44,476 bases of DNA from Escherichia phage vB_EcoD_Pubbukkers. A program made the position numbers and the translations under genes. The stretch lies in the sequence record NC_073068.1. One strand, written 5' to 3'. Below the pieces are notes generated by a model, which saw only the letters and a list, made by a program, of their open reading frames with translations, was not told where the DNA came from and ran no database searches. How positions within the stretch are numbered: position 1 is the stretch's first letter; each line of letters begins with the position of its first letter. Of the stretch, positions 29,481 to 44,422 are shown piece by piece.

Positions 29481-29490
29481 GCCGTATTAA

Positions 29491-29983: not shown

Positions 29984-32900
29984 TACTTCCTGTACCTGTA
30001 CATGATGTCGCCTTCAGCGGCAAGCGGGAAGCCTTTCGCCCAAATAGGCAGGTCGCACATCAGCGCGCAAAGCTCCTCGGTCGTGTAGTCGTCGGTGTCC
30101 GGAACTTCGGTGATCAATTCATCGTGCACTGACAGGACGATTTCATATCCGGCAGCTTCAACGCCAGGCATGGACCACGCGAGGATATCGCGGCACAGCG
30201 CCTGTACGATGTTTTCCGTCAGTTTGCCGCCGTAGGTGTACTGGAACCCCCACTGGCGCGTCGTCTGATTCTCGCCCTGATATTTAATGCGGGTGCTGGT
30301 GCGCTTCTTGCCGGTGTCTTCGTCAATCTCGGTCGTGACCGACAGCGCGATGCCGGGGTAACTCATGATGCGCCCCGACGGCAACTCAATTTTCAACCAC
30401 CACCCCGCGGCGTTCGGGTCGTCGCGCTCCTCGTCAAAGGTTGGGTCGTGCTTCGCCTTCGTACGGACAATCTTGAGCGCTTTTCTACCGTCCGGGCGAA
30501 CGGTAGCGCCAGCCCAGTATGCTTTGCCCGGATTGCGTATTGCACACAACACCGCGTCCTCAAGCTCGGCCCAAAAGGCTACCGTCTTCGGGTGCGCCTC
30601 TCGCCACATGCGTTTAATCGCATCACACGTAAGCCATACGTTTTTCGGCAGTATGTAAGTCGGGCGCTCGTCCTTCTTGCCCGGCTTCGGCGGTCGCTTC
30701 GCTTCGTTAATGCGGGCGTACTCATAACCCCGTTTAGCCGCTGCCCAAATGTGATTGGGGAATGTGCCCTTCATGACGTCCGCCATCGCGTAAAGGTCGA
30801 GGCCCAGGTTTTTAGCGAACTGCAAGAACGCCGCGACGCCGCCACCATAGCCCAGGCCAAGCTCGCAGTTATGCGCCACCAGAAAACCAGACTTAGACGC
30901 AATAAGGAACCGGTTTCCGTCTTCCACATCAATCAGGTCGTAAACCGGCTCGCAATAGGTTAACTTCCCGTTCCAGTTCAGCAATGCGGGTAAGGGCTTC
31001 ATCGTACTTTCGCTGAAGCTCGGGCACGCTGCGCCGGTTACGGCAGTTTTCCGAACGGCTGACAAACCGAAGGTTTCCAGGCTCATAGTTGCTGTCTGTA
31101 TCGATCCGGTCCATTTCGAAGTCTGGATTATCCCAGCCGTCCAGCGTTTGAACGTAGAGAAGAAACGACCTTTTATCTCTCTGCCATTCGTCACATACGG
31201 CAATCCCACGACCGCCGTAGTTTTTATACCCTTTGGCGCGGGGGTTTGTCGTTCGTGATATTGCCGCTGACAGCCGGTTGAGCAACCGCGTTCTGTGCGC
31301 ATCGTCTGGCATTGCGTCATCGTAGCAAAAATACTGTTTACGATACCGCTTTGTCGCTTCAATTGCGCAGAGGTTGCATTGGGATGTTTTACCCCTTCGG
31401 ACGTTGTCATACCCGACGCGTCCTGGCATCGCTCCGCAATCACATTGGGCCAGCAGTTGTCTGTGCCCCTGTCGTTTTGGTAATTCGCGCAGGATAACCA
31501 GGCGTCCATACCTCTCGCCAGGGCGCGGGCCATCGTGCACCTGTCTGAAACGAGTTGCCTTGCCTCCTTCCATGAATGCGTCAAGATTTTGTGGTCTTCT
31601 GTCATCAAGACCCCGTCCACGTCTATCACTGGTTTCCACCCCATAAGGTGCGCGCCTTTTGTACTCACCCATTTTTCGCCGTTCCATACTTTATCCGTTG
31701 ATGTTACGGCCATAATATCCTTGAACCCGCCATCGGTCAATACTTGGGTATGGCGGTGCAAGCAAGCCTTCCCTATCTGGCGTAAGTCCTTGCGGTTAGC
31801 TTTAATGTAGTCCGGGTCCAGGCCGAACATCTTACCGGCAGTCTCACAATAGATATCACGACCGGCCTTAAACACCATTAGCGCGGTTTTCTCGCCAGCG
31901 ATCCAGGCAAGTCCACGCCCTTCCACGTTGGAGTAGTCCGCTACGACAAACTTCTTGCCCTTAGCCGGGATAATGCACCCGCGAACGGTCGAGGCTGTTA
32001 GCTTCGATATGTCGTACGCCCAGTGTGCGGTCCCGCGTAGCAGGGAATTGATGCCGTTGGTGAGCATGTGCGACCGGACCCAAAAAGCAACGTCGCTCTC
32101 GCCTTCGCGGCGCTTAATCTTCCCTTCGTGATCGTCGCTATACTCGCCGCGTGCCAGGTTTTGAGGCTGGAAGCCTTTACCGGCCCAGCGTAGCGTGCGC
32201 TTTGCCCCTCCATACTGAAGACAACCTCGGCGGCGACCGTCGGCGGATAGGCCATTAACGAGCGGATTGTACTTAGTCGACGCCGTGGATGACGCACCGA
32301 GGCGCATCTCGATAAGCACTTTGCCCTCGTCGGGGAAGTCTGGATCTTCCAGCAGGTCGTTAAGCGTGGATTTCTGCGCATTGTGGATTGTGAACGCAGG
32401 CGCGAGGTCGCGCAGCGCTGGCAGGAAGTCATTGCCGGTCAGCTTACCGCCGAAGCGCTCCCAGGCTTCTTCCTTCAATTCTTCCTTATGCGCCTGCACC
32501 GCTTTGATCGCGGCGTTCGCCAGGTCAACGTCCACATAGAAGCCGCGGTCATTGATCAACTGGTCGATAAGCAGGATTTCATCTTCCTTCGGGGTATTAC
32601 CCCAGTCCGGTATGCGCCAGTAGACCTCCCGCATCGCGATAATATCCAGCGCGGCATATCGCAGAAATTTGGCCCATTCTTCAGGGTGAGTCTCGCGAGT
32701 GTAGCGGCGGATTTTGTAAGTCTTAGGGGTAGGCTTGCAGAATCGTTTAATCAGCGCCTTGCCTGCCTTATCCTTCGCGTGCTCTGCGTCAACGCCCAGC
32801 ACCTGACACTGCATATCGAGGCTGCCCGGCAGCGCGTGCCGAAAGGCCATAATCATGGTATCTTCGATCTGGCTTACCGGCAGGTCGATTCCCCACTTTT

Positions 32901-33171
32901 CACGGATAACCAGGCGGTCAAACAGGAGGCCGTTAGCCATCACGATTTTTGCTTTCTTGCGGGATACCTGACGGAGCGCCTTGCGCAGTTCACGCGGCAT
33001 TGTTGGTGATTCAGTGGCATCCCATGTCTGCACGCGGCCTTCGTCGATGGCGTAGGTGCAAATCATGATCTCGGTGGTTGGGTGCTCTGCGTAGGCGTAC
33101 GCCCCTACTTTCTTCAGGTCCACCCCGCTAAATGTCTCGGTATCGAGAAACAGGCGTTCAAAGTTTTTCAT
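29983..33171 (-). CDS. DNA polymerase I family (3'-5' exonuclease plus polymerase) interrupted by an intein
   Basis: 1062 aa; Exo I FLDTETFS; motif A VADYSNVEGRGLAW; motif B split as RQIGKA | intein | CELGLGYGGG; motif C VLSVHDELITEV. Intein residues 470-768 carry block A (CLHRHTQVLTDGG), block B (ILTHSW), block F (VYDLIDVEDGNRFLIA) and block G (FLVAHN followed by +1 Cys). Confidence 0.85.
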   Translation of the reverse strand: MKNFERLFLDTETFSGVDLKKVGAYAYAEHPTTEIMICTYAIDEGRVQTWDATESPTMPRELRKALRQVSRKKAKIVMANGLLFDRLVIREKWGIDLPVSQIEDTMIMAFRHALPGSLDMQCQVLGVDAEHAKDKAGKALIKRFCKPTPKTYKIRRYTRETHPEEWAKFLRYAALDIIAMREVYWRIPDWGNTPKEDEILLIDQLINDRGFYVDVDLANAAIKAVQAHKEELKEEAWERFGGKLTGNDFLPALRDLAPAFTIHNAQKSTLNDLLEDPDFPDEGKVLIEMRLGASSTASTKYNPLVNGLSADGRRRGCLQYGGAKRTLRWAGKGFQPQNLARGEYSDDHEGKIKRREGESDVAFWVRSHMLTNGINSLLRGTAHWAYDISKLTASTVRGCIIPAKGKKFVVADYSNVEGRGLAWIAGEKTALMVFKAGRDIYCETAGKMFGLDPDYIKANRKDLRQIGKACLHRHTQVLTDGGFKDIMAVTSTDKVWNGEKWVSTKGAHLMGWKPVIDVDGVLMTEDHKILTHSWKEARQLVSDRCTMARALARGMDAWLSCANYQNDRGTDNCWPNVIAERCQDASGMTTSEGVKHPNATSAQLKRQSGIVNSIFATMTQCQTMRTERGCSTGCQRQYHERQTPAPKGIKTTAVVGLPYVTNGREIKGRFFSTFKRWTAGIIQTSKWTGSIQTATMSLETFGLSAVRKTAVTGAACPSFSESTMKPLPALLNWNGKLTYCEPVYDLIDVEDGNRFLIASKSGFLVAHNCELGLGYGGGVAAFLQFAKNLGLDLYAMADVMKGTFPNHIWAAAKRGYEYARINEAKRPPKPGKKDERPTYILPKNVWLTCDAIKRMWREAHPKTVAFWAELEDAVLCAIRNPGKAYWAGATVRPDGRKALKIVRTKAKHDPTFDEERDDPNAAGWWLKIELPSGRIMSYPGIALSVTTEIDEDTGKKRTSTRIKYQGENQTTRQWGFQYTYGGKLTENIVQALCRDILAWSMPGVEAAGYEIVLSVHDELITEVPDTDDYTTEELCALMCDLPIWAKGFPLAAEGDIMYRYRK
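30868..31764 (-). mobile_element. intein inserted in DNA polymerase motif B
   Basis: 299 codons between extein residues ...RQIGKA and CELGLGYG...; starts with Cys, ends with His-Asn followed by Cys; canonical Hint blocks at both ends; the central ~180 codons show no endonuclease motifs in the polymerase frame. Confidence 0.8.
30929..31687 (-). CDS. HNH homing endonuclease encoded in the -1 frame inside the polymerase intein
   Basis: 252-aa ORF offset by one nucleotide from the polymerase frame; contains GRLVILREL...CDCG...SQCNLC, KGYKNYGGRGIAVCDEW and DRIDTDSNYEPGNLRFVSRSENCRNR (HNH core). Likely true start at Met39 (31573); no strong RBS seen. Confidence 0.6.
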   Translation of the reverse strand: MERRKMGEYKRRAPYGVETSDRRGRGLDDRRPQNLDAFMEGGKATRFRQVHDGPRPGERYGRLVILRELPKRQGHRQLLAQCDCGAMPGRVGYDNVRRGKTSQCNLCAIEATKRYRKQYFCYDDAMPDDAHRTRLLNRLSAAISRTTNPRAKGYKNYGGRGIAVCDEWQRDKRSFLLYVQTLDGWDNPDFEMDRIDTDSNYEPGNLRFVSRSENCRNRRSVPELQRKYDEALTRIAELEREVNLLRAGLRPD

Positions 33172-33338
33172 TGCTTAATCCTCACTACGGCGTCCGCGCT
33201 GCCGACCATGGAGAAGATGCCGTCAGACAGGGCAATCTCTTCGCCATTGTTGCGAATCTCGGCAACTGTGAAATATTCCCCCAGTAGCTTGGACCATACT
33301 TGCATTCCGACTTTTACTTCGCTGGCTTTAATACGCAT
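33168..33338 (-). CDS. small hypothetical protein translationally coupled to the polymerase
   Basis: 56-aa ORF (MRIKASEVKVGMQVWSKL...) whose stop overlaps the polymerase ATG (ATGA); AGGA upstream. Below the ORF-track size cutoff; found by reading. Confidence 0.4.
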   Translation of the reverse strand: MRIKASEVKVGMQVWSKLLGEYFTVAEIRNNGEEIALSDGIFSMVGSADAVVRIKQ

Positions 33339-33357
33339 TTTTCATTGTCCTATTTAA

Positions 33358-33380
33358 AAGCCCGCATTAAGCGGGCTTGA
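33358..33380 (-). terminator. possible terminator on minus strand
   Basis: AAGCCCGC-attaa-GCGGGCTT stem (plus 33358-33378) followed on the minus strand by a short U/A run; downstream of the SSB-like gene. T-tract is weak. Confidence 0.35.
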
Positions 33381-33396
33381 ATAGTGGGCTTTGCCC

Positions 33397-34173
33397 TTAA
33401 CGGCGGCGACGTTTACGTGGCGCTTCGTCTTCGTCGTCGTCCTCATCTTCGTCATCGCGTGGCTTACGACGTTTACGTGGTGCTTCATCTTCGTCGTCGT
33501 CATCGCGGCGCTTGGACTTTTTGGACTTGCGCGGCTTGTCGTCTTCGTCATCGTCATCACGACGTTTTGACTTTTTGGACTTACGCGGGCTTTCGTCTTC
33601 GTCATCGTCGCCCAGGTCTTCGTCGGAACATGAAGACCCGCCACCTCCGAAGGCTTCGCCGTCTTCACGGAATCGCAGACCCAGCAAGCCTGCCCCGAGT
33701 CCCTTGCCGTTGGTATTGTTCCACGCCCAAATATCAAGGGACACGTTGCAATAACAACCGGAGTAGATCTCCTGGCCTTCAATCTCGTCGCCTTCTACGG
33801 TCAGACCTTGTTCAGTCTGCTTCTCGCCGAGTGACGTTTGAATGATAGGCTGTTTGAACGATTTGGCGTTGATATACAACATGCCTTCGAATTCTTCGGT
33901 CACTTCGTCGCGCTCGTCACCGTCGCGGACTGCGCATTCCTTCGAATCCTGGGCGTAGTGGCGGTCCATCCACTTATCGGCATTCTTCTCGGATTTCAGC
34001 TTGTCGGTGAGCACTGCGCGCGCTGCCGCTTCCACTTTGTCCACCTGCGGATCTTCTTTATCCAGAAGAATCACGGCACGGTATGCCGGTTTTTGCCCAT
34101 CCTGTTTAGGGGTATCACGTTCCCAAATTTTAAGGAAGCATACGCGCACATTTTTCAGGTTGACTTTAGCCAT
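33397..34173 (-). CDS. ssDNA-binding protein-like (DUF2815-like N-domain) with alternating acidic/basic repeat tail
   Basis: 258 aa from ATG 34173 (MAKVNLKNVRVCF) with RBS GAGGAA; C-terminal ~80 aa are repeats of D/E-rich blocks followed by PRKSKKSKRR-like blocks, ending RKRRRR; encoded by imperfect tandem DNA repeats. Confidence 0.5.
   Translation of the reverse strand: MAKVNLKNVRVCFLKIWERDTPKQDGQKPAYRAVILLDKEDPQVDKVEAAARAVLTDKLKSEKNADKWMDRHYAQDSKECAVRDGDERDEVTEEFEGMLYINAKSFKQPIIQTSLGEKQTEQGLTVEGDEIEGQEIYSGCYCNVSLDIWAWNNTNGKGLGAGLLGLRFREDGEAFGGGGSSCSDEDLGDDDEDESPRKSKKSKRRDDDDEDDKPRKSKKSKRRDDDDEDEAPRKRRKPRDDEDEDDDEDEAPRKRRRR
33408..33610. repeat. imperfect tandem repeats within the SSB-like gene 3' region
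   Basis: Two ~35-bp units (cgacgtttacgtggYgcttcRtcttcgtcgtcgtc) and two ~45-bp units (ttggactttttggacttRcgcgg...tcgtcttcgtcatcgtc) encoding the charged repeat tail. Confidence 0.6.
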
Positions 34174-34263
34174 TTTCCAATTCCTCATTTTCACATGTAT
34201 CGGGGTTATTGGAAGCCACCCCGTTCGGCTTGGTTGCTAATCTACTTGGTTGCGCCTTAGCGG

Positions 34264-34506
34264 TCAAGCGTTTTTATTAAAAAGATTTCGTGTCACGTAG
34301 TTGGTGGCGTTCTCGATCCAGCTTAACGGCGGGCGGTCGATATTCCTCTCCACCCAGTCGACGGCAGCGTCGCTATAACCGTTGTCCAGCCAGCGGGTCG
34401 GATGTCGAATCATCCACGCCACCATTAATACGCCTTGTACGCAATGCAGAATAAAACCCAGCGCGCCGAGCAAAAACATCAATAAGATTGCGAATACTTT
34501 ATTCAT
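34264..34506 (-). CDS. small membrane protein
   Basis: 80 aa with N-terminal hydrophobic helix (VFAILLMFLLGALGFILHCV); start overlaps the stop of the upstream nuclease gene. Confidence 0.45.
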   Translation of the reverse strand: MNKVFAILLMFLLGALGFILHCVQGVLMVAWMIRHPTRWLDNGYSDAAVDWVERNIDRPPLSWIENATNYVTRNLFNKNA

Positions 34507-35929
34507 TGCTTAAGTCCTCGTCAGTAGCTTCAGACCACGCAGGGCGCGGGTCGTCTATTGGCGCTAATACCGGTTTAGCCGGTGCGCGCGTGATTTTATC
34601 ACACAGCTTCGCCCATACTTTCGGCTTCTCGTCCTTCAGTACCTTCTCGGCATCGGTAGGACTGAGTAATGTTTCTTTGTACATCACATCGCGCTTGATC
34701 CGGGCCTTAGTGAAGATTTCAATCACTTCGCGTTCGTCCGCCCACTTGCGAATCCCTTCCTTACCGGCAACCATCTTGAGGCCCAGCGATTCGCCATCAC
34801 CCGCCATTACGGCCTTGAATACCGCGGACTCGATAGCCTTGATGTGCTGGCGCATTGCGTCTAGACCCTCATATGCCTTGCGCAGTTCCGCCGCGCTCAT
34901 AGCGCCTGGTGCCGCTTCTCTCTTACTACGCTTCGCACGTCGTGCCGCTTTGCGGGCTTCGCGGGCCATATTGCGGTCGTGATTGGCGCATTCTTCCTCG
35001 GTCGCCACGCTCACGTCGTCGCCCAGGTCTTCGTCGGTTGCCGTTGGAGGTGTCATCGTGTCGATTGCGGCCTTAGCGCGGGCACTACACTGATCCGCAA
35101 ATCGACACCACTGGCACGCATCAACGCTGGGCCGGAAGTCTGCGCGGGTAAGCCCCTTCTTGCCTCGGGAATACGCCTCCAGTGCGGCAATAGCGCGCTT
35201 GGATGCAAACTTCGCGAATATCTCCAGCGCTTCTACCGAAATATCCCACTCCGACGCCCCGCCGCAATACGGCTGGAAGATAACCAGTCGCACGGTTGTA
35301 ATGTCGTACATAGTTTGCAGCTTGCGCAGCAGTCCGAGCGCGTACAACATAAGCTGTTTGTTCTCTTTCGCCTCGACCTTATGCCGCCCGGTCTTCAGGT
35401 CGCCAACAATCAGCATGTACGTTCCATCGGTCTTTTTCATGACCATGACCATATCGGCAGTACCGAACGTTTTAATCCTGTTGCCGTCGATCTCGTAGCC
35501 TGAGTGAAGGACGCGGGTCAGATCGGCGCGCATCTCAAGCTGGACAAACTCCGCCACTTCGAGGAGCGGTCGCCAGTGGTCGATGTACGCGTCGCACTGT
35601 TTCACCATGTCGTCGTTGACCAGTACGCCGCCTTTCGGTGCGTTAGGGTGTGCCTTTACTGGCCCCTTGCCTTCGTTCTCGACGTAGCACCCTTTATACG
35701 TCTTCGCGGTTATCAGCTTCTCACCGGCGATAATGCGGTTTAGCACCACCTCAGATACGGTGTGCATACTCGTACCGTTAATCGCGGCTTGCCCGGATTC
35801 GTTCGGGATATCTTTTTCCACCACCAGGGCGGCAGGGCAACCCATCCATTTTTTAGCACCGGATGGACCAAGTAATGAGTGTTCCGTATTGCTACCGGAT
35901 TGCGTTTTACGTTTTGGTTTAATCGCCAT
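34499..35929 (-). CDS. PD-(D/E)xK nuclease, DUF2800 / Cas4-like
   Basis: 476 aa; N-terminal LGPSGAKKWMGCPA, central VGDLKTGRHK (D-x-K) and C-terminal Cys cluster (ACQWCRFADQCS) as in Cas4/RecB-family exonucleases; adjacent to the SSB-like gene. Confidence 0.68.
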   Translation of the reverse strand: MAIKPKRKTQSGSNTEHSLLGPSGAKKWMGCPAALVVEKDIPNESGQAAINGTSMHTVSEVVLNRIIAGEKLITAKTYKGCYVENEGKGPVKAHPNAPKGGVLVNDDMVKQCDAYIDHWRPLLEVAEFVQLEMRADLTRVLHSGYEIDGNRIKTFGTADMVMVMKKTDGTYMLIVGDLKTGRHKVEAKENKQLMLYALGLLRKLQTMYDITTVRLVIFQPYCGGASEWDISVEALEIFAKFASKRAIAALEAYSRGKKGLTRADFRPSVDACQWCRFADQCSARAKAAIDTMTPPTATDEDLGDDVSVATEEECANHDRNMAREARKAARRAKRSKREAAPGAMSAAELRKAYEGLDAMRQHIKAIESAVFKAVMAGDGESLGLKMVAGKEGIRKWADEREVIEIFTKARIKRDVMYKETLLSPTDAEKVLKDEKPKVWAKLCDKITRAPAKPVLAPIDDPRPAWSEATDEDLSNE

Positions 35930-36117
35930 TATTCCACCCTTGAAAACTGAGCAATGTAATATTCATGTTTAACCCCAGCCCGCTTCGCGGCTTCGTTCAT
36001 GGTAGCCGCCAGTCCTCTGGCGTGAGTCCAGCAGCAATTCCAGTTCTGATTCATAACGATTTCCGGTTGCTCATCGCCGGTAATACGGCAACGAAATAAA
36101 ACAAAGAATATAGCCAT
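35929..36117 (-). CDS. hypothetical protein
   Basis: 62-aa ORF tightly packed between flanking genes. Confidence 0.4.
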   Translation of the reverse strand: MAIFFVLFRCRITGDEQPEIVMNQNWNCCWTHARGLAATMNEAAKRAGVKHEYYIAQFSRVE

Positions 36118-36369
36118 TTATTTTGTCTCCCAGCGGTCAATTGTTTTTGCTTCGGACGCAACGGCGAAGCGAACATATTCCAGATTGGAGTCCGCCCAAA
36201 TATAAAAGTCGGGGTTAGTAAAGGTGGTGCGCTTAATTTGCGCGGGGGTATTGCGGCGTTTGTCTATTACGGCAACGCGGGACTTAAAATTGCCGATGCG
36301 TTCGAATAGCCAATAATACGGGCGCTGGTCGCGGGAGTCCACCGCCTCGATTAGCGTGAAGCGTGCCAT
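36118..36369 (-). CDS. hypothetical protein
   Basis: 83 aa; ATG at 36369 lies immediately after the terminator that follows the acidic-protein gene. Confidence 0.45.
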   Translation of the reverse strand: MARFTLIEAVDSRDQRPYYWLFERIGNFKSRVAVIDKRRNTPAQIKRTTFTNPDFYIWADSNLEYVRFAVASEAKTIDRWETK

Positions 36370-36380
36370 TGTCTCGTCCT

Positions 36381-36410
36381 CTAAAAAGAGGCCCGCTAAT
36401 CTGCGGGCCG
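36381..36410 (-). terminator. rho-independent terminator on minus strand
   Basis: GGCCCGC-agatta-GCGGGCC followed by UCUUUUUAG on the minus strand; separates the first early gene from the rest of the leftward operon with no room for a new promoter. Confidence 0.65.
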
Positions 36411-36417
36411 GAATATA

Positions 36418-36933
36418 TTAATCTTCCAGTTCGAAATAGGTTTCGACGATTTCTTTTAGCTCTTCGTGGAAGTCTTCGACGTCGTCATCTTCCAGCTTGG
36501 CGATTGATTTGATCTCGAACGATTCCAGCAGGTTGTCGAATTCGTCGTTCGCATCGTCGTCATCGCCACCGGCGATAATCGCGGCATACTGTTTGATTTC
36601 GTCGCGCATCTCTGCCAGCGGGTCGGCATCTTTCTTACCTTTGCCTTTCGCCGGTGCTTTCTTAGACTTAGCCGGTTTTTCGTCTTCGGCATCGTCGTCG
36701 TCATCTTCTACGACTTCTTTTTTAGCCTTACCTTTCGCCGGGGATTTTTTAGATTTAGCCGGTTTTTCGTCTTCGGCGTCATCGTCGTCATCTTCGACAA
36801 CTTCTTTTTTGGCCTTAGACGGCTTCTTATCTTCCTGTTTACCAACGGCAGCGCCAACGGTTTCATAATGCTTTGCAATGGTTTCCAGTGCTACTACGCC
36901 GCGAGTGATCAGGTTTACGATTTGCTCAAACAT
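36418..36933 (-). CDS. acidic/basic repeat protein (first gene of the leftward early operon)
   Basis: 171 aa from ATG 36933 (MFEQIVNLITRG) with RBS GGAG; two tandem ~28-aa repeats (KKEVVEDDDDDAEDEKPAKSKKxPAKGKxKK) and an acidic C-terminus; has its own promoter and terminator. Confidence 0.6.
   Translation of the reverse strand: MFEQIVNLITRGVVALETIAKHYETVGAAVGKQEDKKPSKAKKEVVEDDDDDAEDEKPAKSKKSPAKGKAKKEVVEDDDDDAEDEKPAKSKKAPAKGKGKKDADPLAEMRDEIKQYAAIIAGGDDDDANDEFDNLLESFEIKSIAKLEDDDVEDFHEELKEIVETYFELED
36635..36814. repeat. tandem ~90-bp repeat (2 units) inside the acidic-protein gene
   Basis: Units 36635-36727 and 36728-36814 are imperfect copies (ttacctttcgccgg...agccggtttttcgtcttcggc...atcgtcgtcatcttc...cttcttttttRgcc). 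Confidence 0.7.
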
Positions 36934-37129
36934 GGTATATCTCCGATTGGTTAAGTTTAGGTGTCGGCAGTTAACTTCGTCGGTGGCCTTAACATATTGC
37001 CAGGTTACGCGTTCTCCCGTTCGGGTAGTGGACCTGGTTATATAATCACGGTTGGGAATCCTGACACTTCGATCCGGCCCCTGCGTTACCCCTCTCCAGT
37101 TTGCGTCCTGCATCCTGTCGACGGGGTGA

Positions 37130-37159
37130 ATAATAGATTGGTTGCAGGATGGGTGTCAA
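37130..37159 (-). promoter_or_regulatory. sigma70-like promoter for the acidic-protein gene
   Basis: On the minus strand: -35 TTGACA (37159-37154), 18-bp spacer containing TGCAACCAAT, -10 TATTAT (37135-37130); a 7-bp inverted repeat CATCCTG/CAGGATG (37111-37117 and 37146-37152) brackets the -10. Confidence 0.5.
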
Positions 37160-37170
37160 CAACTAATTTC

Positions 37171-37206
37171 AAAAAAAAAAGCGCCGAGGCAAAATGCGAC
37201 GGCGCT
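37171..37206 (-). terminator. strong rho-independent terminator on minus strand (A10 on plus = U10 on transcript)
   Basis: On the minus strand AGCGCCG-13 nt loop-CGGCGCU followed by ten U; stem at plus 37180-37206. Confidence 0.65.
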
Positions 37207-37234
37207 AACCAATAAGAGACAATGAGACGGGAGT

Positions 37235-37263
37235 ATTATTACACGCGTGCGCGCCCGTTTCAA
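37235..37263 (-). promoter_or_regulatory. sigma70-like promoter on minus strand upstream of the U10 terminator
   Basis: -35 TTGAAA (37263-37258), 17-bp spacer, -10 AATAAT (37240-37235) on the minus strand; would give a ~55-60 nt transcript ending at 37171. Confidence 0.4.
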
Positions 37264-37335
37264 TATCCAAAGGATTTGACACCTTGCGGTTTTAGGTGTA
37301 GTTTCGTTGATCATTAACCAACTGAGGGCAGAGCA

Positions 37336-37665
37336 ATGAATGTAAACGACGCAATCGAAATGTTAACGAAGACTGTTTGCAGTGAGACTAGCCGGTCCTG
37401 GGCTTATACCGATGCCGTTGGGGAGGTGTTATTTGAAATCGAACGACTGCGCAGTGTCGAAAAAGAATTACGCGCCAGGCTGGAATTGCTCAACGGTACG
37501 GCGGCCAGCAAGCTGCAAAAGCACAATGAAGAAATGGAAGAATACAAAAAGCAGGTTATCCGTTTGCGCGCCGAGGGCAAATCCTGGGCGATGATTGCCG
37601 AGTTGACCGGAATTAATCAGAGCACAGTGCGCTCCTGGGTACGCAATAATAAAACTTCTAAGTAA
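37336..37665 (+). CDS. HTH DNA-binding protein (putative transcriptional regulator)
   Basis: 109 aa; C-terminal helix-turn-helix-like GKSWAMIAELTGINQSTVRSWVR; first gene of the rightward arm; perfect -35 TTGACA at 37276-37281 upstream. Confidence 0.55.
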   Translation: MNVNDAIEMLTKTVCSETSRSWAYTDAVGEVLFEIERLRSVEKELRARLELLNGTAASKLQKHNEEMEEYKKQVIRLRAEGKSWAMIAELTGINQSTVRSWVRNNKTSK

Positions 37666-37675
37666 GGCCACGGCA

Positions 37676-39940
37676 ATGAGCTTAATTAAATTCGCTGTAA
37701 CACGACCCGCTAAAAAAGGCGAAAAAGCCAGGGCGGAAAACTTCCAGATGACTACCGAAGAGTTTTTCGAATTTATCAATGATGCGAAAGAAATCTCCTC
37801 GGTGCATATCAACAAGACGGAAGATAAAGCCGAGTATGCGCGCCGCAAGCGTAAGGCCGATGGCATCGTAGCGTATACCAGTGACGGCTTACGCCGCAAG
37901 ACCAGTGCGGTGGACCGCTCGATCCTGTTCTTCGATATTGACCGTACCGACACCCGCACCCTACGCCGCTGCCGTAAGGCGTTCATCGACGCGGGACTGG
38001 AGCACGTCTTCCACACCACAACCGGCGACCGCCATCCGCTGAAAGGCGGCACGCGTTGCGCTCGATTCCTGGTACTCACGGACAAGCCTGTACCGGCTGA
38101 AGACCTGGGCCGTGTCCAGTATGCGCTATTACACCAACTGGGTCTGTCAGATGTGGACTTCGACGATTGCACGAAAGACACAAACCGCCTTATGTACCTG
38201 CCACACCAGCAATCGGTTGTTAAGTGTCACTACGGCAAACGCGCCCGCGTCCGTCGTCTTCTTCGCCTGGCTGATAAGCTGGGAATGGAAAAAGAGGAAG
38301 TCCGCCGCGAACTGACCCAGGGCGACGACGCAGTGGCAGACGGCATTCTGGACTGGTGCTTCCAGGCAGGATTCGAGGAGTTATCTTCCGGGCGGGGCTA
38401 TGAAGTGCCGTGCCCTAACGAACACCTACACAGCGGCGAAGGGTCCACCGCTATTATGGTCAAGGATGGCGAGATCCGTTTCAAGTGTATGCACACCGGC
38501 AACGAGTGTTGCTCGGAACTGAATAGACACCAGCACCTGGCGCTACGTCTTATCGGGATCCCGGACCACCTGAACGTCGAACCGCACAACATGTCACGTA
38601 AGCAAATCGCCGCCATCCTCCCAGGGCTGGACGACGAGGAAGTCGAATCATTATATGAACATATTGTTGATGCGGTTGGCGACGGCGAAGAATACGGCGT
38701 GTGCACCGATGCGGATCTGGATAACGAGCCGGTTGCGCTGTTCAGTAAGCACGACCCGATCATAGAAGGCCTGGTCAACTTCAAATCGACCTGGTATCTT
38801 GCTGGCGAGTCGAACATCGGTAAATCGTTCTACGTGCTGGGGCAAATGGGTGCGGTTGCCGCGGGGATTCCGTTCGGTGGCGCGAAGGTCGTCCAGTCTC
38901 ATTGCTTCTATTTCGACGCGGAAGGTGGCGAAGCCTCTAACCAGCGCAAAGAAGCATTGCAGATTAAATATGAGCACGACCTGGACAAGCTGCACATTAT
39001 CGATCTGCAATCACGCGGCTGGGATATCACCAGCAAATCCGGCTTGCGTGAAGTTATCAGCTTCATCAACCGCACCGCTAACGGCGAGCCGGTTGGCCTG
39101 GTGGCGTTCGACTCACTCAACCAGACTGTCGCGCTGCGGTCCGCCGATGCCAAACCGTTCGACGAGAACAACGCCAGCGATATGGGTGAAGTGGTCAAAG
39201 CGCTGAAGGCCATCGCGGAAAATACAGGCGGCAGCGCGGGCGTCATCCACCACCCGGCGAAGGGTGCAAACGGCAGCAGAACCCCCCGAGGGTCCGGCGC
39301 GCTGCATGGTGCTGTCGATTCTGCGTTCTTCCTGGAACAGCCGGACGACAACCAGCCCGGACAATTGAACCTGTATCATGAGAAGTCACGTAACGGCATC
39401 AAGCAAGCGCCGCGTGGCTTCGTCCTGCTCAAGTGCAAGGTGAAGGTGGATCTCCGCAAGTCCGAGGCGTTCGAGGCGCACCAGTCCACCAGCACCGGGC
39501 CAGACTTCGGCGATGTGGTTGCCGGTTGGGACGTCAAGCCAATTGCCTCCACGCCACGCGACGAGACTCTTTACCTCGTACCGGTCGCCCTGGCACCGTT
39601 CGCCATCGAGCAGGCGAAGTCCGCGGGCAAGGCCGCAGTTAAGGAAGAGAACGCCGCGGGACCGCGCAACGAAAAAGAGAAAGTGCTTTATGCGGCCCTG
39701 GAAAAACTGATGGAAGATAACCCGGACCATACTGGTTTCAGTAAATCGGCAATTGTCCGCCAGGCGGGACTCGCGAAGGGTGGTACTTCGACGAAGGCAA
39801 TCGACGATATGGTCGAGCGCGGCGTACTCGGTTTTTATACCGATCCGCACACCGGGGCCATCTATGGGTCGTCGAATATCGTCATCAAAACGAACATACC
39901 AATCACGCTTTCGGCGACCGATGATGATTTAAAAGATTAA
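37676..39940 (+). CDS. DNA primase/helicase (AEP prim-pol-like N-domain plus RecA-like ATPase)
   Basis: 754 aa; N-terminal ILFFDIDRTD (acidic D-x-D motif as in archaeo-eukaryotic primases); Cys/His cluster (CPNEHLHSGEG...FKCMHTGNECC); Walker A GESNIGKSF and VAFDSLNQ Walker B-like segment. Confidence 0.75.
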   Translation: MSLIKFAVTRPAKKGEKARAENFQMTTEEFFEFINDAKEISSVHINKTEDKAEYARRKRKADGIVAYTSDGLRRKTSAVDRSILFFDIDRTDTRTLRRCRKAFIDAGLEHVFHTTTGDRHPLKGGTRCARFLVLTDKPVPAEDLGRVQYALLHQLGLSDVDFDDCTKDTNRLMYLPHQQSVVKCHYGKRARVRRLLRLADKLGMEKEEVRRELTQGDDAVADGILDWCFQAGFEELSSGRGYEVPCPNEHLHSGEGSTAIMVKDGEIRFKCMHTGNECCSELNRHQHLALRLIGIPDHLNVEPHNMSRKQIAAILPGLDDEEVESLYEHIVDAVGDGEEYGVCTDADLDNEPVALFSKHDPIIEGLVNFKSTWYLAGESNIGKSFYVLGQMGAVAAGIPFGGAKVVQSHCFYFDAEGGEASNQRKEALQIKYEHDLDKLHIIDLQSRGWDITSKSGLREVISFINRTANGEPVGLVAFDSLNQTVALRSADAKPFDENNASDMGEVVKALKAIAENTGGSAGVIHHPAKGANGSRTPRGSGALHGAVDSAFFLEQPDDNQPGQLNLYHEKSRNGIKQAPRGFVLLKCKVKVDLRKSEAFEAHQSTSTGPDFGDVVAGWDVKPIASTPRDETLYLVPVALAPFAIEQAKSAGKAAVKEENAAGPRNEKEKVLYAALEKLMEDNPDHTGFSKSAIVRQAGLAKGGTSTKAIDDMVERGVLGFYTDPHTGAIYGSSNIVIKTNIPITLSATDDDLKD

Positions 39941-40015
39941 ATTTTGCGCGCATTGGTCGCCGTTATGGGAATCCCCATATCGGTAAAAGATTAAATTTTG
40001 CGCGCATTGGTTGCC
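39930..40015. repeat. pair of 32-bp direct repeats (31/32 identical) overlapping the primase stop
   Basis: taaaagattaaattttgcgcgcattggtYgcc at 39930-39961 and 39984-40015, 54-bp period; each ends in an ATTGGTYGCC motif. Confidence 0.8.
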
Positions 40016-40075
40016 ATTTTGCGTGCTTTTAGCTGGTCGTATTGGTTGCCGTGTAGTGTAAATATAATGAATAGT

Positions 40076-40263
40076 TATGCAGTTTTATTGCATAAAGTAA
40101 GCGGGACAAAAAGCGGGACAGACCAGGGGCGGGACAAAGCGGGACAGCACCCCTGTCCCGCCCCGGATGACGCGGCCTGGCGAGGAGCGGGACAGCGGGA
40201 CAGCACCCCAGTCTTTCAGACTAGACGGGGGGTCTGGCACCCCCCTCGTCTGAGACTGAATAA
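40076..40263. repeat. copy 2 of the ~188-bp duplicated element (GCGGGACA iterons plus conserved stem-loop)
   Basis: Aligns with 11596-11782: same TATGCA...TGCATA palindrome, four plus two GCGGGACA units and the same stem (loop sequence differs). Confidence 0.85.
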
Positions 40264-40475
40264 AATCCGGGATTGCATAACGCACGGCAACAAGATGCGG
40301 AGTGCGGTCGTCGATGAACTAGGCAACCAACGCGAGATGCATTATGCTGAGTGAAAAATTCAGTTTGCAGTTGCAGCAGATAGCGATCAACTTTTTCATG
40401 CGCGTGATTGATATTGGTTGCATTCGTCCTGCCAGGGTGTTAGATTGGTTGCATATCAAACGAAGGAGGGCATTC

Positions 40476-40781
40476 ATGAAGGCTTTAATCTGGAATTACA
40501 CATCAGCGGTCGCAGCGCTCTATGAAGCGAAGGCGCTGAACGGCAACGTAGACCGTGCGCGCCAGTTTGCGACACTGGCACACCAGTCAATCATGTGTGC
40601 GCTAGACGATATGGACGCCAGCATGGATGACCTGGGTCCGCTGCGTAAGGCAATCCATGAATACGCGCTGGCATTCTCCCGTGAGCGCCTGGCTTATCGC
40701 TTCGGTATTGGCGAGAAGGCAGTGACAAACGTAGCCAGGATTAAAGCCCAGCGTGAGCTATTCGCCCAGCTTGCGAAATAA
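40476..40781 (+). CDS. hypothetical protein
   Basis: 101 aa from ATG 40476 (MKALIWNYTS) with RBS AAGGAGGG; the ORF-track start at 40344 is rejected. Confidence 0.55.
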   Translation: MKALIWNYTSAVAALYEAKALNGNVDRARQFATLAHQSIMCALDDMDASMDDLGPLRKAIHEYALAFSRERLAYRFGIGEKAVTNVARIKAQRELFAQLAK

Positions 40782-40790
40782 GGGGCCAAA

Positions 40791-41066
40791 ATGGGGCGTA
40801 GACGAGCAAAACAGCTTTCGTGGCATATTCCCCTGCATTGCATACGAATATGGGCGGAGAATGCGACTGAGGGCGATTCTGTATTCTGGTGCTATCGCGA
40901 TGACGTGAAGCCACTGACGCAGACTCGCTACTTACACCAGTTCGCAGCACAACACGATTTCAGGGTGCGGACTTCCTTGAAACCAATGGGAATACGTATT
41001 ACATTACGCCGGAAGCCCGCCGTTGAGCGGGTAGGCAAACACTGGAGACTGCGCAAATGTTCTTAG
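40791..41066 (+). CDS. hypothetical protein
   Basis: 91-aa basic ORF with RBS AAGGGG. Confidence 0.45.
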   Translation: MGRRRAKQLSWHIPLHCIRIWAENATEGDSVFWCYRDDVKPLTQTRYLHQFAAQHDFRVRTSLKPMGIRITLRRKPAVERVGKHWRLRKCS

Positions 41067-41187
41067 ACGGAATATCGCAGGCGTTTATCGACCTGCATAT
41101 GTGCGTACTTGACTACGAACAAAACGGCATCGCTACGGTATGCGATGGCGACTATAAGACTGTTGACGAGATTGAGGAGACTGAGCA

Positions 41188-41730
41188 ATGAAATTACTAT
41201 TCCGCCGTAAGCACGATGGGCGCATCCTGAAGCCGATCCAGACCCTGGATTCCTACGTCCGCTTGCAAGACGCGGCAGGCAATCGGGTGTGGTGGGCGGT
41301 GAAAGACAAGCTGCCTGAAAACTTTGACGTACTCACACACGATATCGAGCGGGGCGATGTTCTGCGTAATATTCGCGACGGGCAATTGTGGGTCGTGGAG
41401 TATGTCGGACAGCACGCCTTGCGTATGCAGACCCGCAAGGGTGGCGTATCGGGCAACATGATTAGGGGAATGACGTACTTCGGGCTAATCCACTACGAGC
41501 GCGTTGGTCGCAAATACAGCCTTCGCGACCGCCAGCCGCATGAGCGCGCTACTTACGACGCGACCCAGGTGCAATCTAAAATTCGCCAGGCCACGCGTGA
41601 GATAGTCAATCGCTTTGATGCCGTGACGAACGCACAGCGCCATGCGCAGGAGTACGGTGTGGGATTCATCCGCGTCGAACAGGACGGCAGCATGAACGCT
41701 ATTGACCCGCGCTCGGTGATTCTGAAATGA
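41188..41730 (+). CDS. hypothetical protein
   Basis: 180-aa ORF; its ATG overlaps the stop of an upstream 44-codon ORF (41057-41191). Confidence 0.5.
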   Translation: MKLLFRRKHDGRILKPIQTLDSYVRLQDAAGNRVWWAVKDKLPENFDVLTHDIERGDVLRNIRDGQLWVVEYVGQHALRMQTRKGGVSGNMIRGMTYFGLIHYERVGRKYSLRDRQPHERATYDATQVQSKIRQATREIVNRFDAVTNAQRHAQEYGVGFIRVEQDGSMNAIDPRSVILK

Positions 41731-41955
41731 GTGCGACGATCCGTGATATGCTTCAGCACAACCGCTTTGAGATAGGCGGTCGGGTGTTTCGCAATTACTT
41801 CGTGGCGCGTGCATGGGCGCGCCATATTGGCAAACCGGAAGGGGCAATTCGATGCTATACGTCTTCGCGGTAGTATGTGGCGGTAGTCTGGTGGCCCTGG
41901 TGCTGTTGGCGTCGGCAAGTGGTCCATTTTCGATTAATTATGCAAGCGTGATATA

Positions 41956-41990
41956 GTCCCAGTGAGCTAAAACTTACTGGGACTTTTTTA
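41956..41990 (+). terminator. rho-independent terminator / RBS-occluding hairpin immediately upstream of the holin
   Basis: GTCCCAGTGAG-ctaaaa-CTTACTGGGAC stem followed by TTTTTT and then the holin ATG at 41990. Confidence 0.6.
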
Positions 41991-42280
41991 TGGATAAGCT
42001 AAACGAGTGGTTATTTGCCCTCGCATGTCTGGCAGGCGGCTTCGTAGGCGCACGCATTCACGGCGAGGCTACGAAAGGGCCGCTAAACTTCGTGTTATAT
42101 ATCGTAGTTGGCTTCCTGTGTGCCATCTTTGGTGCGCCAGCTATCGCCGAGTGGGCTGGCTTATCTGGCGAGCGCACTGTCGCCGGTTTGGGCTTCGTAA
42201 CTGCCATCTTCTGGATGCCAATAGCTGACCGGATCCGGGAGACAATTGCGTCGCTACACCTTCCGGGGGGCGCAAAATGA
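41990..42280 (+). CDS. holin (putative)
   Basis: 96 aa with three hydrophobic segments and a charged C-terminus; first gene of a three-gene cassette ending in a lysozyme. Confidence 0.6.
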   Translation: MDKLNEWLFALACLAGGFVGARIHGEATKGPLNFVLYIVVGFLCAIFGAPAIAEWAGLSGERTVAGLGFVTAIFWMPIADRIRETIASLHLPGGAK

Positions 42281-42522
42281 TTATCACCGTCCTGTTGTTT
42301 GTTATCATAGGGGCTTCGTCCCTGTTTAACGTGTATGCGCCGTCCGTTCAGGATGGCTTCTTCGGTCGGGTGTTATATCTGCTAACAGCAATGACCTGTA
42401 TTGTCGGGCTGTTGCAAACGGGAGACGTCTCTGATGCCACCTGGACCGCGTTAATCTGGCTGTTTGCATTGCGCACCCTGCGTAATGCTGTGTTGAATGG
42501 GGTAAAACATGCGATTCAGTGA
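42277..42522 (+). CDS. second holin-like membrane protein (holin or antiholin)
   Basis: 81 aa with two or three hydrophobic helices; start overlaps the previous stop; overlaps the endolysin start. Confidence 0.5.
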   Translation: MIITVLLFVIIGASSLFNVYAPSVQDGFFGRVLYLLTAMTCIVGLLQTGDVSDATWTALIWLFALRTLRNAVLNGVKHAIQ

Positions 42523-43000
42523 TAACGGTCTAAGATTTACGGCAGCATGGGAGGCTTTCAGCCCGGTGCCGTATTTCGCGACCAAGAAAGAGCAGGCCCG
42601 CGGCCTGTACACCTGGGGTTATGGGCACACTGGCACTAATCCGCCACGAAGCATTACCCGTGCGGAAGCGCTGGAACTGCTCAAGCGCGATGTGGCGTAT
42701 GCTGAGGACTGGGTGAACAAATACGCACATCCGAGCATTAACCAGGCGCAATTCGACGCGCTGGTGGATCTGGTAATCAACGCCGGTCCAGGTCCGATCG
42801 TCCCGGATGACGTCGCGACCGACTTTGATGATGCGGTGCGACTGGGCGACTGGGCGAAGGTGCGGGCTATACTGCCACAATTCCGCAAGCAAGGCGGTGT
42901 AGTGCTCAAGGGGCTTGTCCGTCGTGCAATCGGCAGGCAAGCGCTATTCGATGGTAAGCAGTGGGACGTTGCCGAGCGAATCGGTCGTAACGCTGCATAA
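42509..43000 (+). CDS. endolysin, phage lysozyme (GH24-like)
   Basis: 163 aa; N-terminal GLRFTAAWEAFSPVPY...GLYTWGYGHT matches the catalytic-Glu region and the Y-T-I-G-x-G-H core of T4-type lysozymes. Confidence 0.72.
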   Translation: MRFSDNGLRFTAAWEAFSPVPYFATKKEQARGLYTWGYGHTGTNPPRSITRAEALELLKRDVAYAEDWVNKYAHPSINQAQFDALVDLVINAGPGPIVPDDVATDFDDAVRLGDWAKVRAILPQFRKQGGVVLKGLVRRAIGRQALFDGKQWDVAERIGRNAA

Positions 43001-43201
43001 TACGAGGTGACACGATATGTTAAAAAGTATTCTTGATCATAATGCGGACGCGCTCGCCGCGCTGGCTAAAACCGAAGACCCTGGCGCACGCGCTATCATC
43101 GCGGACACTATCAGCCATGCAGGCGTCTTTGACGCGAAGCTGCCTAGCCCGCCGCCACAGGAAGAATCTGGCCCAGTGACGTAAACAATCAAGCCCGGTT
43201 A

Positions 43202-43227
43202 ATTCCGGGCTTTTTTATTTATTGCCC
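43202..43227 (+). terminator. rho-independent terminator
   Basis: AGCCCGG-ttaatt-CCGGGCT stem followed by TTTTTTATTT after the lysis cassette. Confidence 0.7.
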
Positions 43228-43279
43228 CAGTACCGTGGTATATTGCATCCAGGTCATCTCAATCTGGAAGTAAATTAAT

Positions 43280-44422
43280 ATGCACCCGCAAACTAAAATC
43301 ACCGACGAGCAATTGATCGCAGAATTGCAATCCGGCACTACCGCGAAAGAGATTGCGAAGAAGTACGGCCTTTCCCTACGAAATGTCTACATGCGCAAAG
43401 CCCGCCTGTCGAAGAAAGGTATTGGTCATGGTAACGATGCCGTAATCCGTAAGCGCGTTGCCGATGGCTTTGGCGTTAAGCGCGTATCCGCCCTGGTGCG
43501 CGGCAATGGTGAAGAGGTCATGTCGTGGGTTATCACTGAGCAGGACAAGGAGCGCCAGCTTGAAGCAATGCGCGCAGTGCTGGACGGCATGAACAGCGAA
43601 ATCACACCGGCAGCACCAGTTAGCGCCCCGCCAGTCCCGATCCAGGCGCTGGACTTGCTCAACCTGTACACCGTGTCTGACTTCCACCTGGGCATGTTGG
43701 CCTGGGGCGAGGAGACTGGCGAAGACTGGGATATGGCGATCGCCGAAGACCTGTTCTACCGCTGGTTTGTCGAAGCCTTCGCACGCGCCCCGGACGCAGG
43801 CACTGCCGTAATTAATATCCTCGGTGATATGGCCCACTTTGATAGCCTCGATGCTGTCACTCCGGCAAGTGGTCACATACTGGACGCCGACACCCGCTAC
43901 CAGAAACTGGTCCGATACATGATTCGCATGGTGCGCAACGTCGTCGAACTGGCGCTGCAAAAACACCACAAAGTCAAACTGCTAATCGTCCAGGGAAATC
44001 ATGACGAGTCGGGTATGATTTGGCTGGCTGAGATGTTCAATACTCTGTACGAGAACGAGCCGCGCGTCGATGTGGATACGTCCCCGGACGTCTACAAAAT
44101 GGTGCAGCACGGCAAGACCACGCTATTTTTCCACCACGGGCATAAAGCGCGCTTTGACGCTATCGAAACCGTCATGATTTCTAAATTCAGACAGGCTTTC
44201 GGGGCCAGTGAGTACAGCTACGCGCATGTCGGTCACTTGCACCACCAGAAGATTGTTGAATCCCGCAACATGATTGTTGAACAGCACCGGACCCTCGCAG
44301 CGAAAGACGCATATGCCAGCCGTGGTGGTTGGATGTCCGGTCGCAGTGCCAACGTAATCACCTATAGCGCCAACTACGGCGAAGTGGCGCGCTTAACCAT
44401 TAGCCCGGAAATGTTGAAGTAA
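43280..44422 (+). CDS. calcineurin-like metallophosphoesterase (SbcD/Mre11-like) with N-terminal HTH
   Basis: 380 aa; N-terminal HTH-like TAKEIAKKYGLSLRNVYMRK; phosphoesterase motifs DFHLG, GDMAHFD, GNHDE and HHGH; extended -10 TGgTATATT at 43246-43254 upstream. Confidence 0.65.
   Translation: MHPQTKITDEQLIAELQSGTTAKEIAKKYGLSLRNVYMRKARLSKKGIGHGNDAVIRKRVADGFGVKRVSALVRGNGEEVMSWVITEQDKERQLEAMRAVLDGMNSEITPAAPVSAPPVPIQALDLLNLYTVSDFHLGMLAWGEETGEDWDMAIAEDLFYRWFVEAFARAPDAGTAVINILGDMAHFDSLDAVTPASGHILDADTRYQKLVRYMIRMVRNVVELALQKHHKVKLLIVQGNHDESGMIWLAEMFNTLYENEPRVDVDTSPDVYKMVQHGKTTLFFHHGHKARFDAIETVMISKFRQAFGASEYSYAHVGHLHHQKIVESRNMIVEQHRTLAAKDAYASRGGWMSGRSANVITYSANYGEVARLTISPEMLK

Follow-up and report, generated by a model that had tools for sequence, protein, structure and literature searches.

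A hairpin predicted to bury the holin start of Escherichia phage vB_EcoD_Pubbukkers: a conserved and probable translational lock, possibly a terminator bypassed by a promoter within it

How can a gene be expressed when its start codon directly follows what looks like a transcription terminator and its only candidate ribosome-binding site lies inside the stem of that terminator? The question is raised by the lysis cassette of Escherichia phage vB_EcoD_Pubbukkers (NC_073068.1), whose 44,476 bases (hereafter the window) constitute a near-complete genome of a Dhillonvirus, an HK578-like siphophage of E. coli. There, a hairpin and a run of T's end at the ATG of the first lysis gene, which encodes a holin-like protein. 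An earlier note, made from the letters alone, had drawn attention to this arrangement and proposed that expression of the holin would require terminator read-through or antitermination together with opening of the structure. We find that the hairpin is conserved as a structure and is predicted to occlude the holin start, and we favour a different way out, namely that the locus is a terminator and translational lock that is bypassed by a promoter internal to it, as in gene e of phage T4. To this reading we assign a probability of about 0.5. The parts of the junction are as follows.

41955-41984, + strand: hairpin, made up of a 5' arm (41955-41966), a loop (41967-41972, CTAAAA) and a 3' arm (41973-41984)
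41985-41989, + strand: U-tract of 5 T's, 6 with the stem-closing T41984, adjoining the ATG at 41990-41992
41947-41951, + strand: 5' strand (CGUGA) of a predicted lower helix, pairing with UUAUG at 41988-41992
41979-41982, + strand: GGGA, the sole Shine-Dalgarno (SD)-like sequence, inside the 3' arm and 7 nt before the ATG
41990-42280, + strand: holin-like gene of 96 aa, the first gene of the lysis cassette (phrog_2359 holin, E = 5e-31)

The sequence from 41955 to 41992 is AGTCCCAGTGAG-CTAAAA-CTTACTGGGACT-TTTTT-ATG. The stem comprises 12 bp, including six G:C pairs and one G.U pair (41964:41975), and closes a loop of 6 nt; the earlier count of 11 bp described the same stem without its outer A:T pair, and the T-run ending at the holin ATG was correctly identified. 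Folded alone, the hairpin has a predicted free energy of -19.3 kcal/mol. When the lower helix is included, which appears in both the minimum free energy and the centroid predictions, the fold reaches -24.1 kcal/mol, consists of two helices (5 bp, a 3x3 internal loop and 12 bp) and pairs the start codon as well. The 101-nt region around the junction folds at -33.3 kcal/mol compared with -19.3 +/- 3.1 kcal/mol for 200 dinucleotide shuffles, none of which was as good (z = -4.46; 0/200), and structure prediction thus bears out what had been read from the letters.

The features of an intrinsic terminator are present, i.e. a GC-rich stem, a short loop and a U-run directly 3' of the stem, with T in seven of the eight bases right after the G:C pair 41956:41983 (the run followed by ATGG). 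In a consensus scan the site ranks first among the terminator-like sites between 38000 and 44476. It lies on the sense strand, after the + strand block of the primase and small open reading frames (ORFs) at 37336-41956, and no T-run follows the hairpin on the - strand. The holin-leader hairpin should, on these features, act as an intrinsic terminator. No Rfam family reached its gathering score in the whole window, and the best match in a permissive scan was NsiR1 (29.3 bits, gathering score 39), the rest being noise; the NsiR1 match is read as reflecting the generic shape of a terminator.

In an RNA that includes both arms, the predicted probability of being unpaired is 0.00 for the SD sequence GGGA and 0.03 for the AUG, in agreement with the earlier observation that the only SD candidate lies within the 3' arm. 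The cost of opening the stretch from -16 to +4, in a context of -60 to +35, was computed for the 71 annotated genes of the relative Bas85. The holin start is the second most costly at 21.5 kcal/mol (median ~5.5 kcal/mol), exceeded by that of a minor tail protein (23.0 kcal/mol) and followed by a third value of 17.6 kcal/mol. The corresponding figure for the holin start in the window is 18.5 kcal/mol. The SD sequence is itself weak, pairing with the anti-SD at -3.9 kcal/mol (calculated for the identical Bas85 leader). There is no alternative start upstream, where an in-frame TGA is found at 41963-65, and the single ATG is followed by the next in-frame start-type codon, a GTG, only ~36 codons downstream. 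Because the stability of the start region governs translation, an established relation, RNA containing both hairpin arms should yield almost no holin. Were the RNA instead to begin at 41963-66, the predicted opening cost would fall from 18.5 to 1.5 kcal/mol and the SD sequence would be 0.6-0.77 unpaired.

Conservation of the locus is high among close relatives. The stem is identical in 20 Dhillonvirus leaders, and variation is confined to the loop (C/A and A/G, giving CUGAAA or AUAAAA in relatives and CUAAAA in the window) and to the T-run, which has 5-7 T's in all Dhillonvirus relatives. Identity to Bas85 is 100% over 41950-41999 compared with 64-90% in the flanking coding sequence and ~85% regionally, and among viral contigs the exact hairpin sequence was found at this locus only. 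In LM40P1, the most divergent Dhillonvirus (holin 70% identical), the leader hairpin is CCCCAGTGAGG...CTTACTGGGG, in which insertions in both arms add one C:G pair, and a T6 run followed by ATG is retained.

More distant homologues are more informative. A tblastn search indicated that the holin family is essentially restricted to the genera Dhillonvirus and Kagunavirus. The Kagunavirus holin is ~46% identical and shares the N-terminus M-D-K, and its gene, too, has those of another holin and of an endolysin after it. The leaders of the two genera align, with the invariant columns CGTG-n-TAT-nn-T-CC ... CTGG ... TGGA. The Kagunavirus hairpin, ATCCTCCAG-(22 nt)-CTGGAGGAT, has a predicted energy of -14.2 kcal/mol (-21.1 kcal/mol for an LSPA1-like variant), has no U-tract and carries in its 3' arm a strong SD sequence, GGAGGA, at a distance of 6 nt from the start codon, a TTG that corresponds by homology to the ATG of Dhillonvirus. 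Between the two genera 4/9 stem pairs have changed on both sides, and in the alignment of the arms 91% of cells are paired compared with 26-56% when the 3' partners are slid, though only five sequence types were available and the statistics are thin. These counts were made on arms-only constructs with an artificial GAAA loop, as a MAFFT alignment of the full leaders mis-registers the 3' arms. The lower helix does not keep its register in Kagunavirus, and the holin homologues of Erwinia phage RF1 and Pantoea phage MED16 have other upstream layouts and add no covariation.

Since the homologous Kagunavirus hairpin lacks a U-tract, termination is not the conserved function. As far as aligned leaders can tell, what has been conserved is the burial of the SD sequence in a helix; the sample is small and the direction clear. 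The U-tract and the terminator character appear to be an addition made in Dhillonvirus. The earlier proposal that the hairpin sequesters the ribosome-binding site is strengthened by the compensatory changes that keep the stem between two genera and by the rank of the holin start among the Bas85 genes. We regard the structure, selection on that structure and occlusion of the start as established by computation and comparison.

The annotation of the Kagunavirus holin start is inconsistent, the RP180 gene being annotated from a GTG 21 nt downstream of the apparent TTG. The TTG with a hairpin-buried GGAGGA is found in K1ind3 (2456-2503 of L018) and in RP180 (2456-2524 of L019), and a small palindrome, AGGATAATTCCT, lies just upstream.

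If long RNA is silent, the holin message might come from elsewhere. Neither an antiterminator nor a sigma factor was found among the 71 annotated Bas85 genes or in PHROG and Pfam scans of the window ORFs that were tested, a set that leaves out some small ORFs. The stretch from the hairpin to the ATG is too short to hold a promoter, but a promoter-like element overlaps the hairpin itself.

41949-41957, + strand: extended -10 promoter-like element TGATATAGT (TGaTATAGT), with TG at 41949-50 and a hexamer at 41952-57 (5/6 matches)
41963-41965, + strand: predicted transcription start, 6-8 nt past the -10 hexamer according to sigma-70 geometry, within the 5' arm

The last three nucleotides of the hexamer are the first three of the 5' arm of the hairpin. 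A standard sigma-70 scan does not report 41949-57 because it demands at least 4/6 matches to the -35 hexamer. The TG, the T-A-T and the final T of the element are invariant across Dhillonvirus and Kagunavirus, and the positions that vary are the 'n' (A, G or C) and hexamer positions 4-5 (AG or CC), the latter covarying with the 3' arm. This pattern is, in the aligned leaders, the one expected of a -10 element.

The mechanism that we propose has three steps. The hairpin and its U-tract would terminate transcription of the rightward early/replication operon, which would be fed by classic promoters near 37299 and 41000. In RNA that reads through, the refolded hairpin would bury the weak SD sequence GGGA and the lower helix the AUG, and early read-through RNA would make no holin because both are buried. 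The lysis cassette would be transcribed from its own extended -10 promoter, TGATATAGT, with a start near 41963-41965 in the 5' arm, and an mRNA that starts internally, lacking that arm, would neither terminate nor hide its ribosome-binding site. Termination, promoter activity, the start site and the early/late timing are the parts of this scheme that we infer. The earlier interpretation is partly supported: the sequence features of a terminator are there, but the expectation that holin expression needs read-through or antitermination plus opening of the structure is not borne out, no antiterminator having been found among the Bas85 genes or the tested window ORFs, and the extended -10 element would give an mRNA free of the hairpin.

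The same kind of element recurs before other modules. Bas85, in which intergenic sequence makes up 4.3%, has eight sense-strand copies of TGnTAnnnT in the gaps before + strand genes against 1.73 +/- 1.27 expected from within-gap shuffles (P = 0.0002, in a test designed after the pattern had been noticed), and three in antisense orientation. Each stands 34-76 nt ahead of the gene that opens a + strand module, these genes being the ones for terminase, scaffold, tail chaperone, tape measure, minor tail, fibre, holin and exonuclease. Six of them, that of the holin included, are conserved in place amid diverged flanks in LM40P1, where the element of the terminase gene has been re-created 8 nt away as TGATATAAT; the comparison for the tape-measure element was mis-aligned and is uninformative. 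The best classic promoters (TTGACA or TTGAAA with a 17-18 nt spacer), on the other hand, are concentrated in the divergent early region and among the leftward genes.

44474 (across the ends to 6), 5928, 10737, 11801, 14486, 21926, 41949 and 43236, + strand: the eight TGnTAnnnT elements of the window, before + strand modules
37135, 37240, 27191, 31717 and 34244, - strand: classic promoters from the position weight matrix (PWM) scan
37299 and 41000, + strand: classic promoters from the PWM scan
37135 (-10 hexamer), - strand: TTGACA-18-TATTAT, in the divergent early control region (37130-37310)
37240, - strand: TTGAAA-17-TG-AATAAT, in the early control region
37299, + strand: TTGACA-17-TAGTTT, in the early control region

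The three promoters of the early control region are close to the consensus. This distribution suggests that the genome has two promoter classes, the classic one lying in the early region and the TGn-type standing before late modules.

Two further junctions resemble that of the holin. At the minor tail gene, TGATAAAAT (14486-94), which overlaps the TGA stop of the tape-measure gene, abuts a hairpin at 14495-14518, GGCCCTCAC-tacaac-GTGGGGGCT, with a G-rich SD sequence in its 3' arm, and this is followed by T5 and an ATG at 14524. A full-length match to phrog_9922 (1-199 of 199) supports that ATG; the ORF list starts the gene at 14485. With an internal 5' end, the predicted opening energy of the minor tail start falls from 23.7 to ~5.5 kcal/mol. 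After the major tail gene, TGTTAATAT directly abuts a terminator at 10746-62 (GGGGCC-agcac-GGCCCC, then T6), which is followed by a separate SD sequence, GGAG, and an ATG at 10785; at this site LM40P1 has the hexamer TAACAT and a rebuilt stem. There are thus three candidate modules (10737-10768, 14486-14526 and 41949-41992), the SD sequence lying in the 3' arm at the holin and minor tail genes. TGnTAnnnT abuts 3/18 terminator candidates compared with ~0.2 expected, and Bas85 has kept all three. Elsewhere in this genome, terminators are followed by a separate SD sequence 10-15 nt downstream.

It is tempting, though we would put it forward with some reserve, to generalise that dhillonviruses use fused terminator-promoter modules, in which an extended -10 promoter abuts or overlaps the 5' arm of an intrinsic terminator and its own transcripts begin inside the stem. 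Such modules would stop incoming transcription, silence read-through where the 3' arm has the SD sequence, and restart transcription at a set level, the ribosome-binding site now being open. Taken with the classic early promoters, they would point to a switch of promoter class between early and late genes in a coliphage that depends on the host RNA polymerase. The holin copy of the module appears, from the aligned leaders, to predate the split between Dhillonvirus and Kagunavirus.

A terminator of another arrangement, AGCCTGCCGATTTGGTGGGCT with T6, at 44443-44476/1-6, overlaps a near-consensus promoter, TTGGTG-17-TGtTATAAT, before the terminase gene, with the -35 hexamer of that promoter inside the 3' half of the terminator.

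Besides the after-the-fact design of the enrichment test, several observations weigh against a promoter inside the holin hairpin. The -35 region is weak (TCGATT or TTCGAT, 2-3/6 matches), and TGATATAGT ranks only 37th of ~89,000 positions in a scan with a rough sigma-70 PWM built from approximate frequencies, so that as a single site it does not stand out. In Kagunavirus the hexamer is TATCCT, with only 4/6 matches. The conserved CGTG and TAT could instead reflect the lower helix or a protein site, and A/T-rich flanks before terminators favour chance -10-like hexamers. The motif CGTGNTAT is not enriched genome-wide (6 vs 5.8 expected), none of 14 K1ind3 terminators is abutted by TGnTAnnnT (the sparse annotation of K1ind3 precluded a clean intergenic test), and a literature search found no maps of transcript 5' or 3' ends for Dhillonvirus or Kagunavirus, for which the published promoter and terminator lists are software predictions only. 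The idea that CGTGNTAT or GTGNTATNNT (5 vs 3.6 expected) is a phage-specific motif was dropped; TGNTATNNT alone is mildly enriched (23 vs 13.8). On balance, the promoter element is supported statistically and phylogenetically, short of demonstration.

Could the hairpin do its work with no internal promoter at all? It might be simply a leaky attenuator, with the lysis genes receiving only the small share of early-operon transcripts that read through, and with breathing of the stem, or ribosome standby on the U-tract, allowing rare translation and a slow build-up of holin. Holins are toxic and are required in small amounts, the terminator features and the occlusion are solid, and the fact that a conventional promoter cannot fit between the hairpin and the ATG suits this explanation too. 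The homologous holin gene of Pantoea phage MED16 has a plain terminator ~45 nt ahead of it, and the T1 terminator of ColE7, located between cei and cel, keeps the lysis protein sublethal (PMC2896534). However, an opening cost of 18-21 kcal/mol together with a weak SD sequence predicts near-zero translation, and an essential minor tail protein, which must be made, shares the architecture. Leakage also leaves the invariance of TG-n-TAT-nn-T across genera and the intergenic enrichment unexplained, and neither the Bas85 annotation nor the scans of tested window ORFs supplied an antiterminator. We consider leakage alone unlikely, though a contender to be taken seriously. Another possibility is that translation of the preceding ORF opens the hairpin.

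41813-41956, + strand: upstream ORF, unique to the window phage, its TAG stop (41954-56) overlapping the hairpin base

Ribosomes finishing this ORF would melt the 5' arm, block the terminator if they closely follow the RNA polymerase, and expose the SD sequence for re-initiation, which would tie holin synthesis to translation of the upstream gene. At termination a ribosome keeps the mRNA open for ~11 nt beyond the first P-site base, which would span the whole 5' arm given the position of the TAG in the window, and the tape-measure stop codon similarly lies 6 nt before the minor-tail stem. But the arrangement in the window stems from a private deletion of ~300 nt (in the region of 41874-41937 of the window) that removes most of a gp59 homologue present in all listed relatives (alignments are in two pieces, 516 nt vs 216 nt in the window). 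As a result, the tail of gp59 is now attached, out of frame, to an ORF for a small membrane peptide. Throughout the rest of Dhillonvirus the stop codon that precedes the stem lies 17 nt away from it, at the equivalent of 41935-37, and in K1ind3 the distance is ~30 nt; both are too far, yet the hairpin is conserved, and coupling appears quite improbable. The structure might otherwise serve RNA processing or stability, through an RNase III cut that frees the 5' region of the holin mRNA or through protection of the 3' end of the upstream mRNA. There are RNase III-type precedents in the lambda N leader and the T7 RNase III sites, and two helices are predicted here, but 17 bp in total is short for E. 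coli RNase III, and cleavage by this enzyme was set aside on that ground. For ColE7, the T1 and T2 hairpins stabilise the cel mRNA (PMC2896534). The lower helix is out of register in Kagunavirus and there was no Rfam match (NsiR1, 29 bits, below the gathering score of 39), so that we give this role very little credence. Nor does it seem at all probable that an ordinary terminator has merely been pressed against the next gene, overlapping the ribosome-binding site without any consequence for regulation. The genome is indeed compact, and there is a second hairpin-T5-ATG junction at 14495-14526; however, the Kagunavirus hairpin sequesters a strong SD sequence and is not a terminator, compensatory changes keep the stem, and other terminators of this genome leave room for a separate SD sequence. 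Control by CsrA was set aside, as the loop contains no GGA and the sole GGA is base-paired in the 3' arm, and sigma-dependent pausing was considered and also set aside.

The region 41000-43300 of the window has matches in 155 phage records at 80-95% identity. The ends of the window are contiguous, the same junction lying inside relatives that are cut elsewhere, e.g. Zumzum.

1 to ~23577, + strand: block from terminase to tail fibre
23605-37113, - strand: block of replication genes
37336-44422, + strand: second + block, encoding a helix-turn-helix (HTH) protein, primase-helicase, small ORFs, two holin-like proteins, endolysin and exonuclease
37336-37665, + strand: 109-aa HTH protein, first gene of the rightward early operon (Pfam HTH_23, HTH_28 and Sigma70_r4_2)
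42277-42522, + strand: second holin-like gene, 81 aa, in the ORF list (phrog_2508 holin, E = 4e-27)
42509-43000, + strand: endolysin, 163 aa (Pfam Phage_lysozyme, E = 5.7e-20)
43191-43212, + strand: terminator-like hairpin closing the lysis cassette, with the next extended -10 element at 43236-43244

Relatives annotate the first lysis gene as holin or 'holin-like class II', and the ATG of the second holin-like gene overlaps the stop codon of the first. The HTH protein, labelled 'transposase' in relatives, exceeds the Pfam cut-offs for HTH_23, HTH_28 and Sigma70_r4_2 (27.7 bits vs 25.7) and is a candidate transcription regulator. At the very beginning of the second holin-like gene (42281-42308, + strand) stands a promoter-like sequence, TTATCA-16-TGtTATCAT, which has probably arisen by chance. 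The GC-rich symmetric hairpins at 43191-43212, after the lysis cassette, and at 23583-23600, between the convergent + and - gene blocks, have a terminator-like score on both strands.

It is plausible that the holin junction is a timing or safety device for lysis, probably working via a promoter within the hairpin rather than via antitermination. The timing of lysis sets phage fitness and is relevant to therapeutic phages, and collections for phage therapy or of the BASEL type often contain dhillonviruses and kagunaviruses. No published account was found of the way in which these siphoviruses, which depend on the host RNA polymerase, keep the holin silent during early transcription of the same strand. 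Were the internal-promoter reading to hold, a single 45-nt element would combine insulator, translational lock and promoter, a compact design for synthetic biology, and the solution seen at T4 gene e would have arisen independently with sigma-70 promoters. Were it wrong, there would still be a well-conserved leaky terminator with an occluded ribosome-binding site that limits a toxic gene, which is ordinary.

Several known systems offer points of comparison. In phage lambda, late control runs through pR'-qut-tR' and the Q antiterminator, upstream of S; Q is required, and ~200 nt separate the promoter from tR', which itself lies well ahead of S. As there, a terminator stands here between a promoter region and a lysis cassette that begins with the holin, but no Q-like gene was found among the 71 Bas85 genes or the tested window ORFs, and the promoter-like element overlaps the terminator and does not precede it. 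A qut-type late promoter was not found before the hairpin, the sole abutting promoter-like element within 900 nt being one that would start inside the stem, and because the start directed by 41949-57 would fall inside the stem, no terminated leader RNA would be possible. Lambda S and P22 gene 13 have a stem-loop at the start of holin translation, sdi, which chooses between two start codons and thus between holin and antiholin. The position is comparable, but the holin of the window has a single start, with no in-frame start upstream, and its structure buries the SD sequence.

The T1 terminator of ColE7, which lies between cei and cel and lowers read-through (PMC2896534), resembles the present hairpin in being an intrinsic terminator right upstream of a lethal lysis gene in an operon, combined with translational control. 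In ColE7, however, the SD sequence is outside the stem and CsrA binds GGA in the loop and at the SD sequence, whereas here the CUAAAA loop has no GGA and the SD sequence is in the stem; no internal promoter has been proposed for cel. Thermus phage P23-45 uses -10/-35 promoters early and extended -10 promoters for its middle and late genes, with gp39 (PMC3950348, PMC3351154). The window likewise has TTGACA-type promoters in the early divergent region and extended -10 elements with weak -35 regions before the structural and lysis modules, but no factor like gp39 or AsiA was identified here and the division into classes is predicted from sequence.

The closest parallel is with T4. Early read-through RNA of e, soc, 49 and I-TevI is inhibited by a helix over the start, and translatable RNA comes from late promoters located in the DNA for the 5' strand of that helix (PMC3014915), the hairpin of gene e being that of McPheeters et al. 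1986, as reviewed in PMC3014915. In both phages the gene concerned is a lysis gene whose SD sequence and AUG are sequestered, by prediction in the present case, in transcripts from upstream promoters, and a holin transcript truncated to a 5' end at 41963-66 is predicted to be open (1.5 kcal/mol). As to promoter class, what is seen here is a difference in sequence type, between TTGACA-type promoters (37135, 37240, 37299 and 41000) and the TGn-type before the late modules. The differences are that the predicted promoter is an extended -10 element for host sigma-70, as opposed to the gp55 late promoter TATAAATA of T4; that the holin hairpin carries a U-tract and should terminate as well; and that the target is a holin, not an endolysin, in an unrelated siphovirus. 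The components, i.e. intrinsic terminators, helices that sequester SD sequences and promoters inside helices, are thus already known, and what would set this locus apart is that the lock doubles as a terminator and that the design recurs at three sites.

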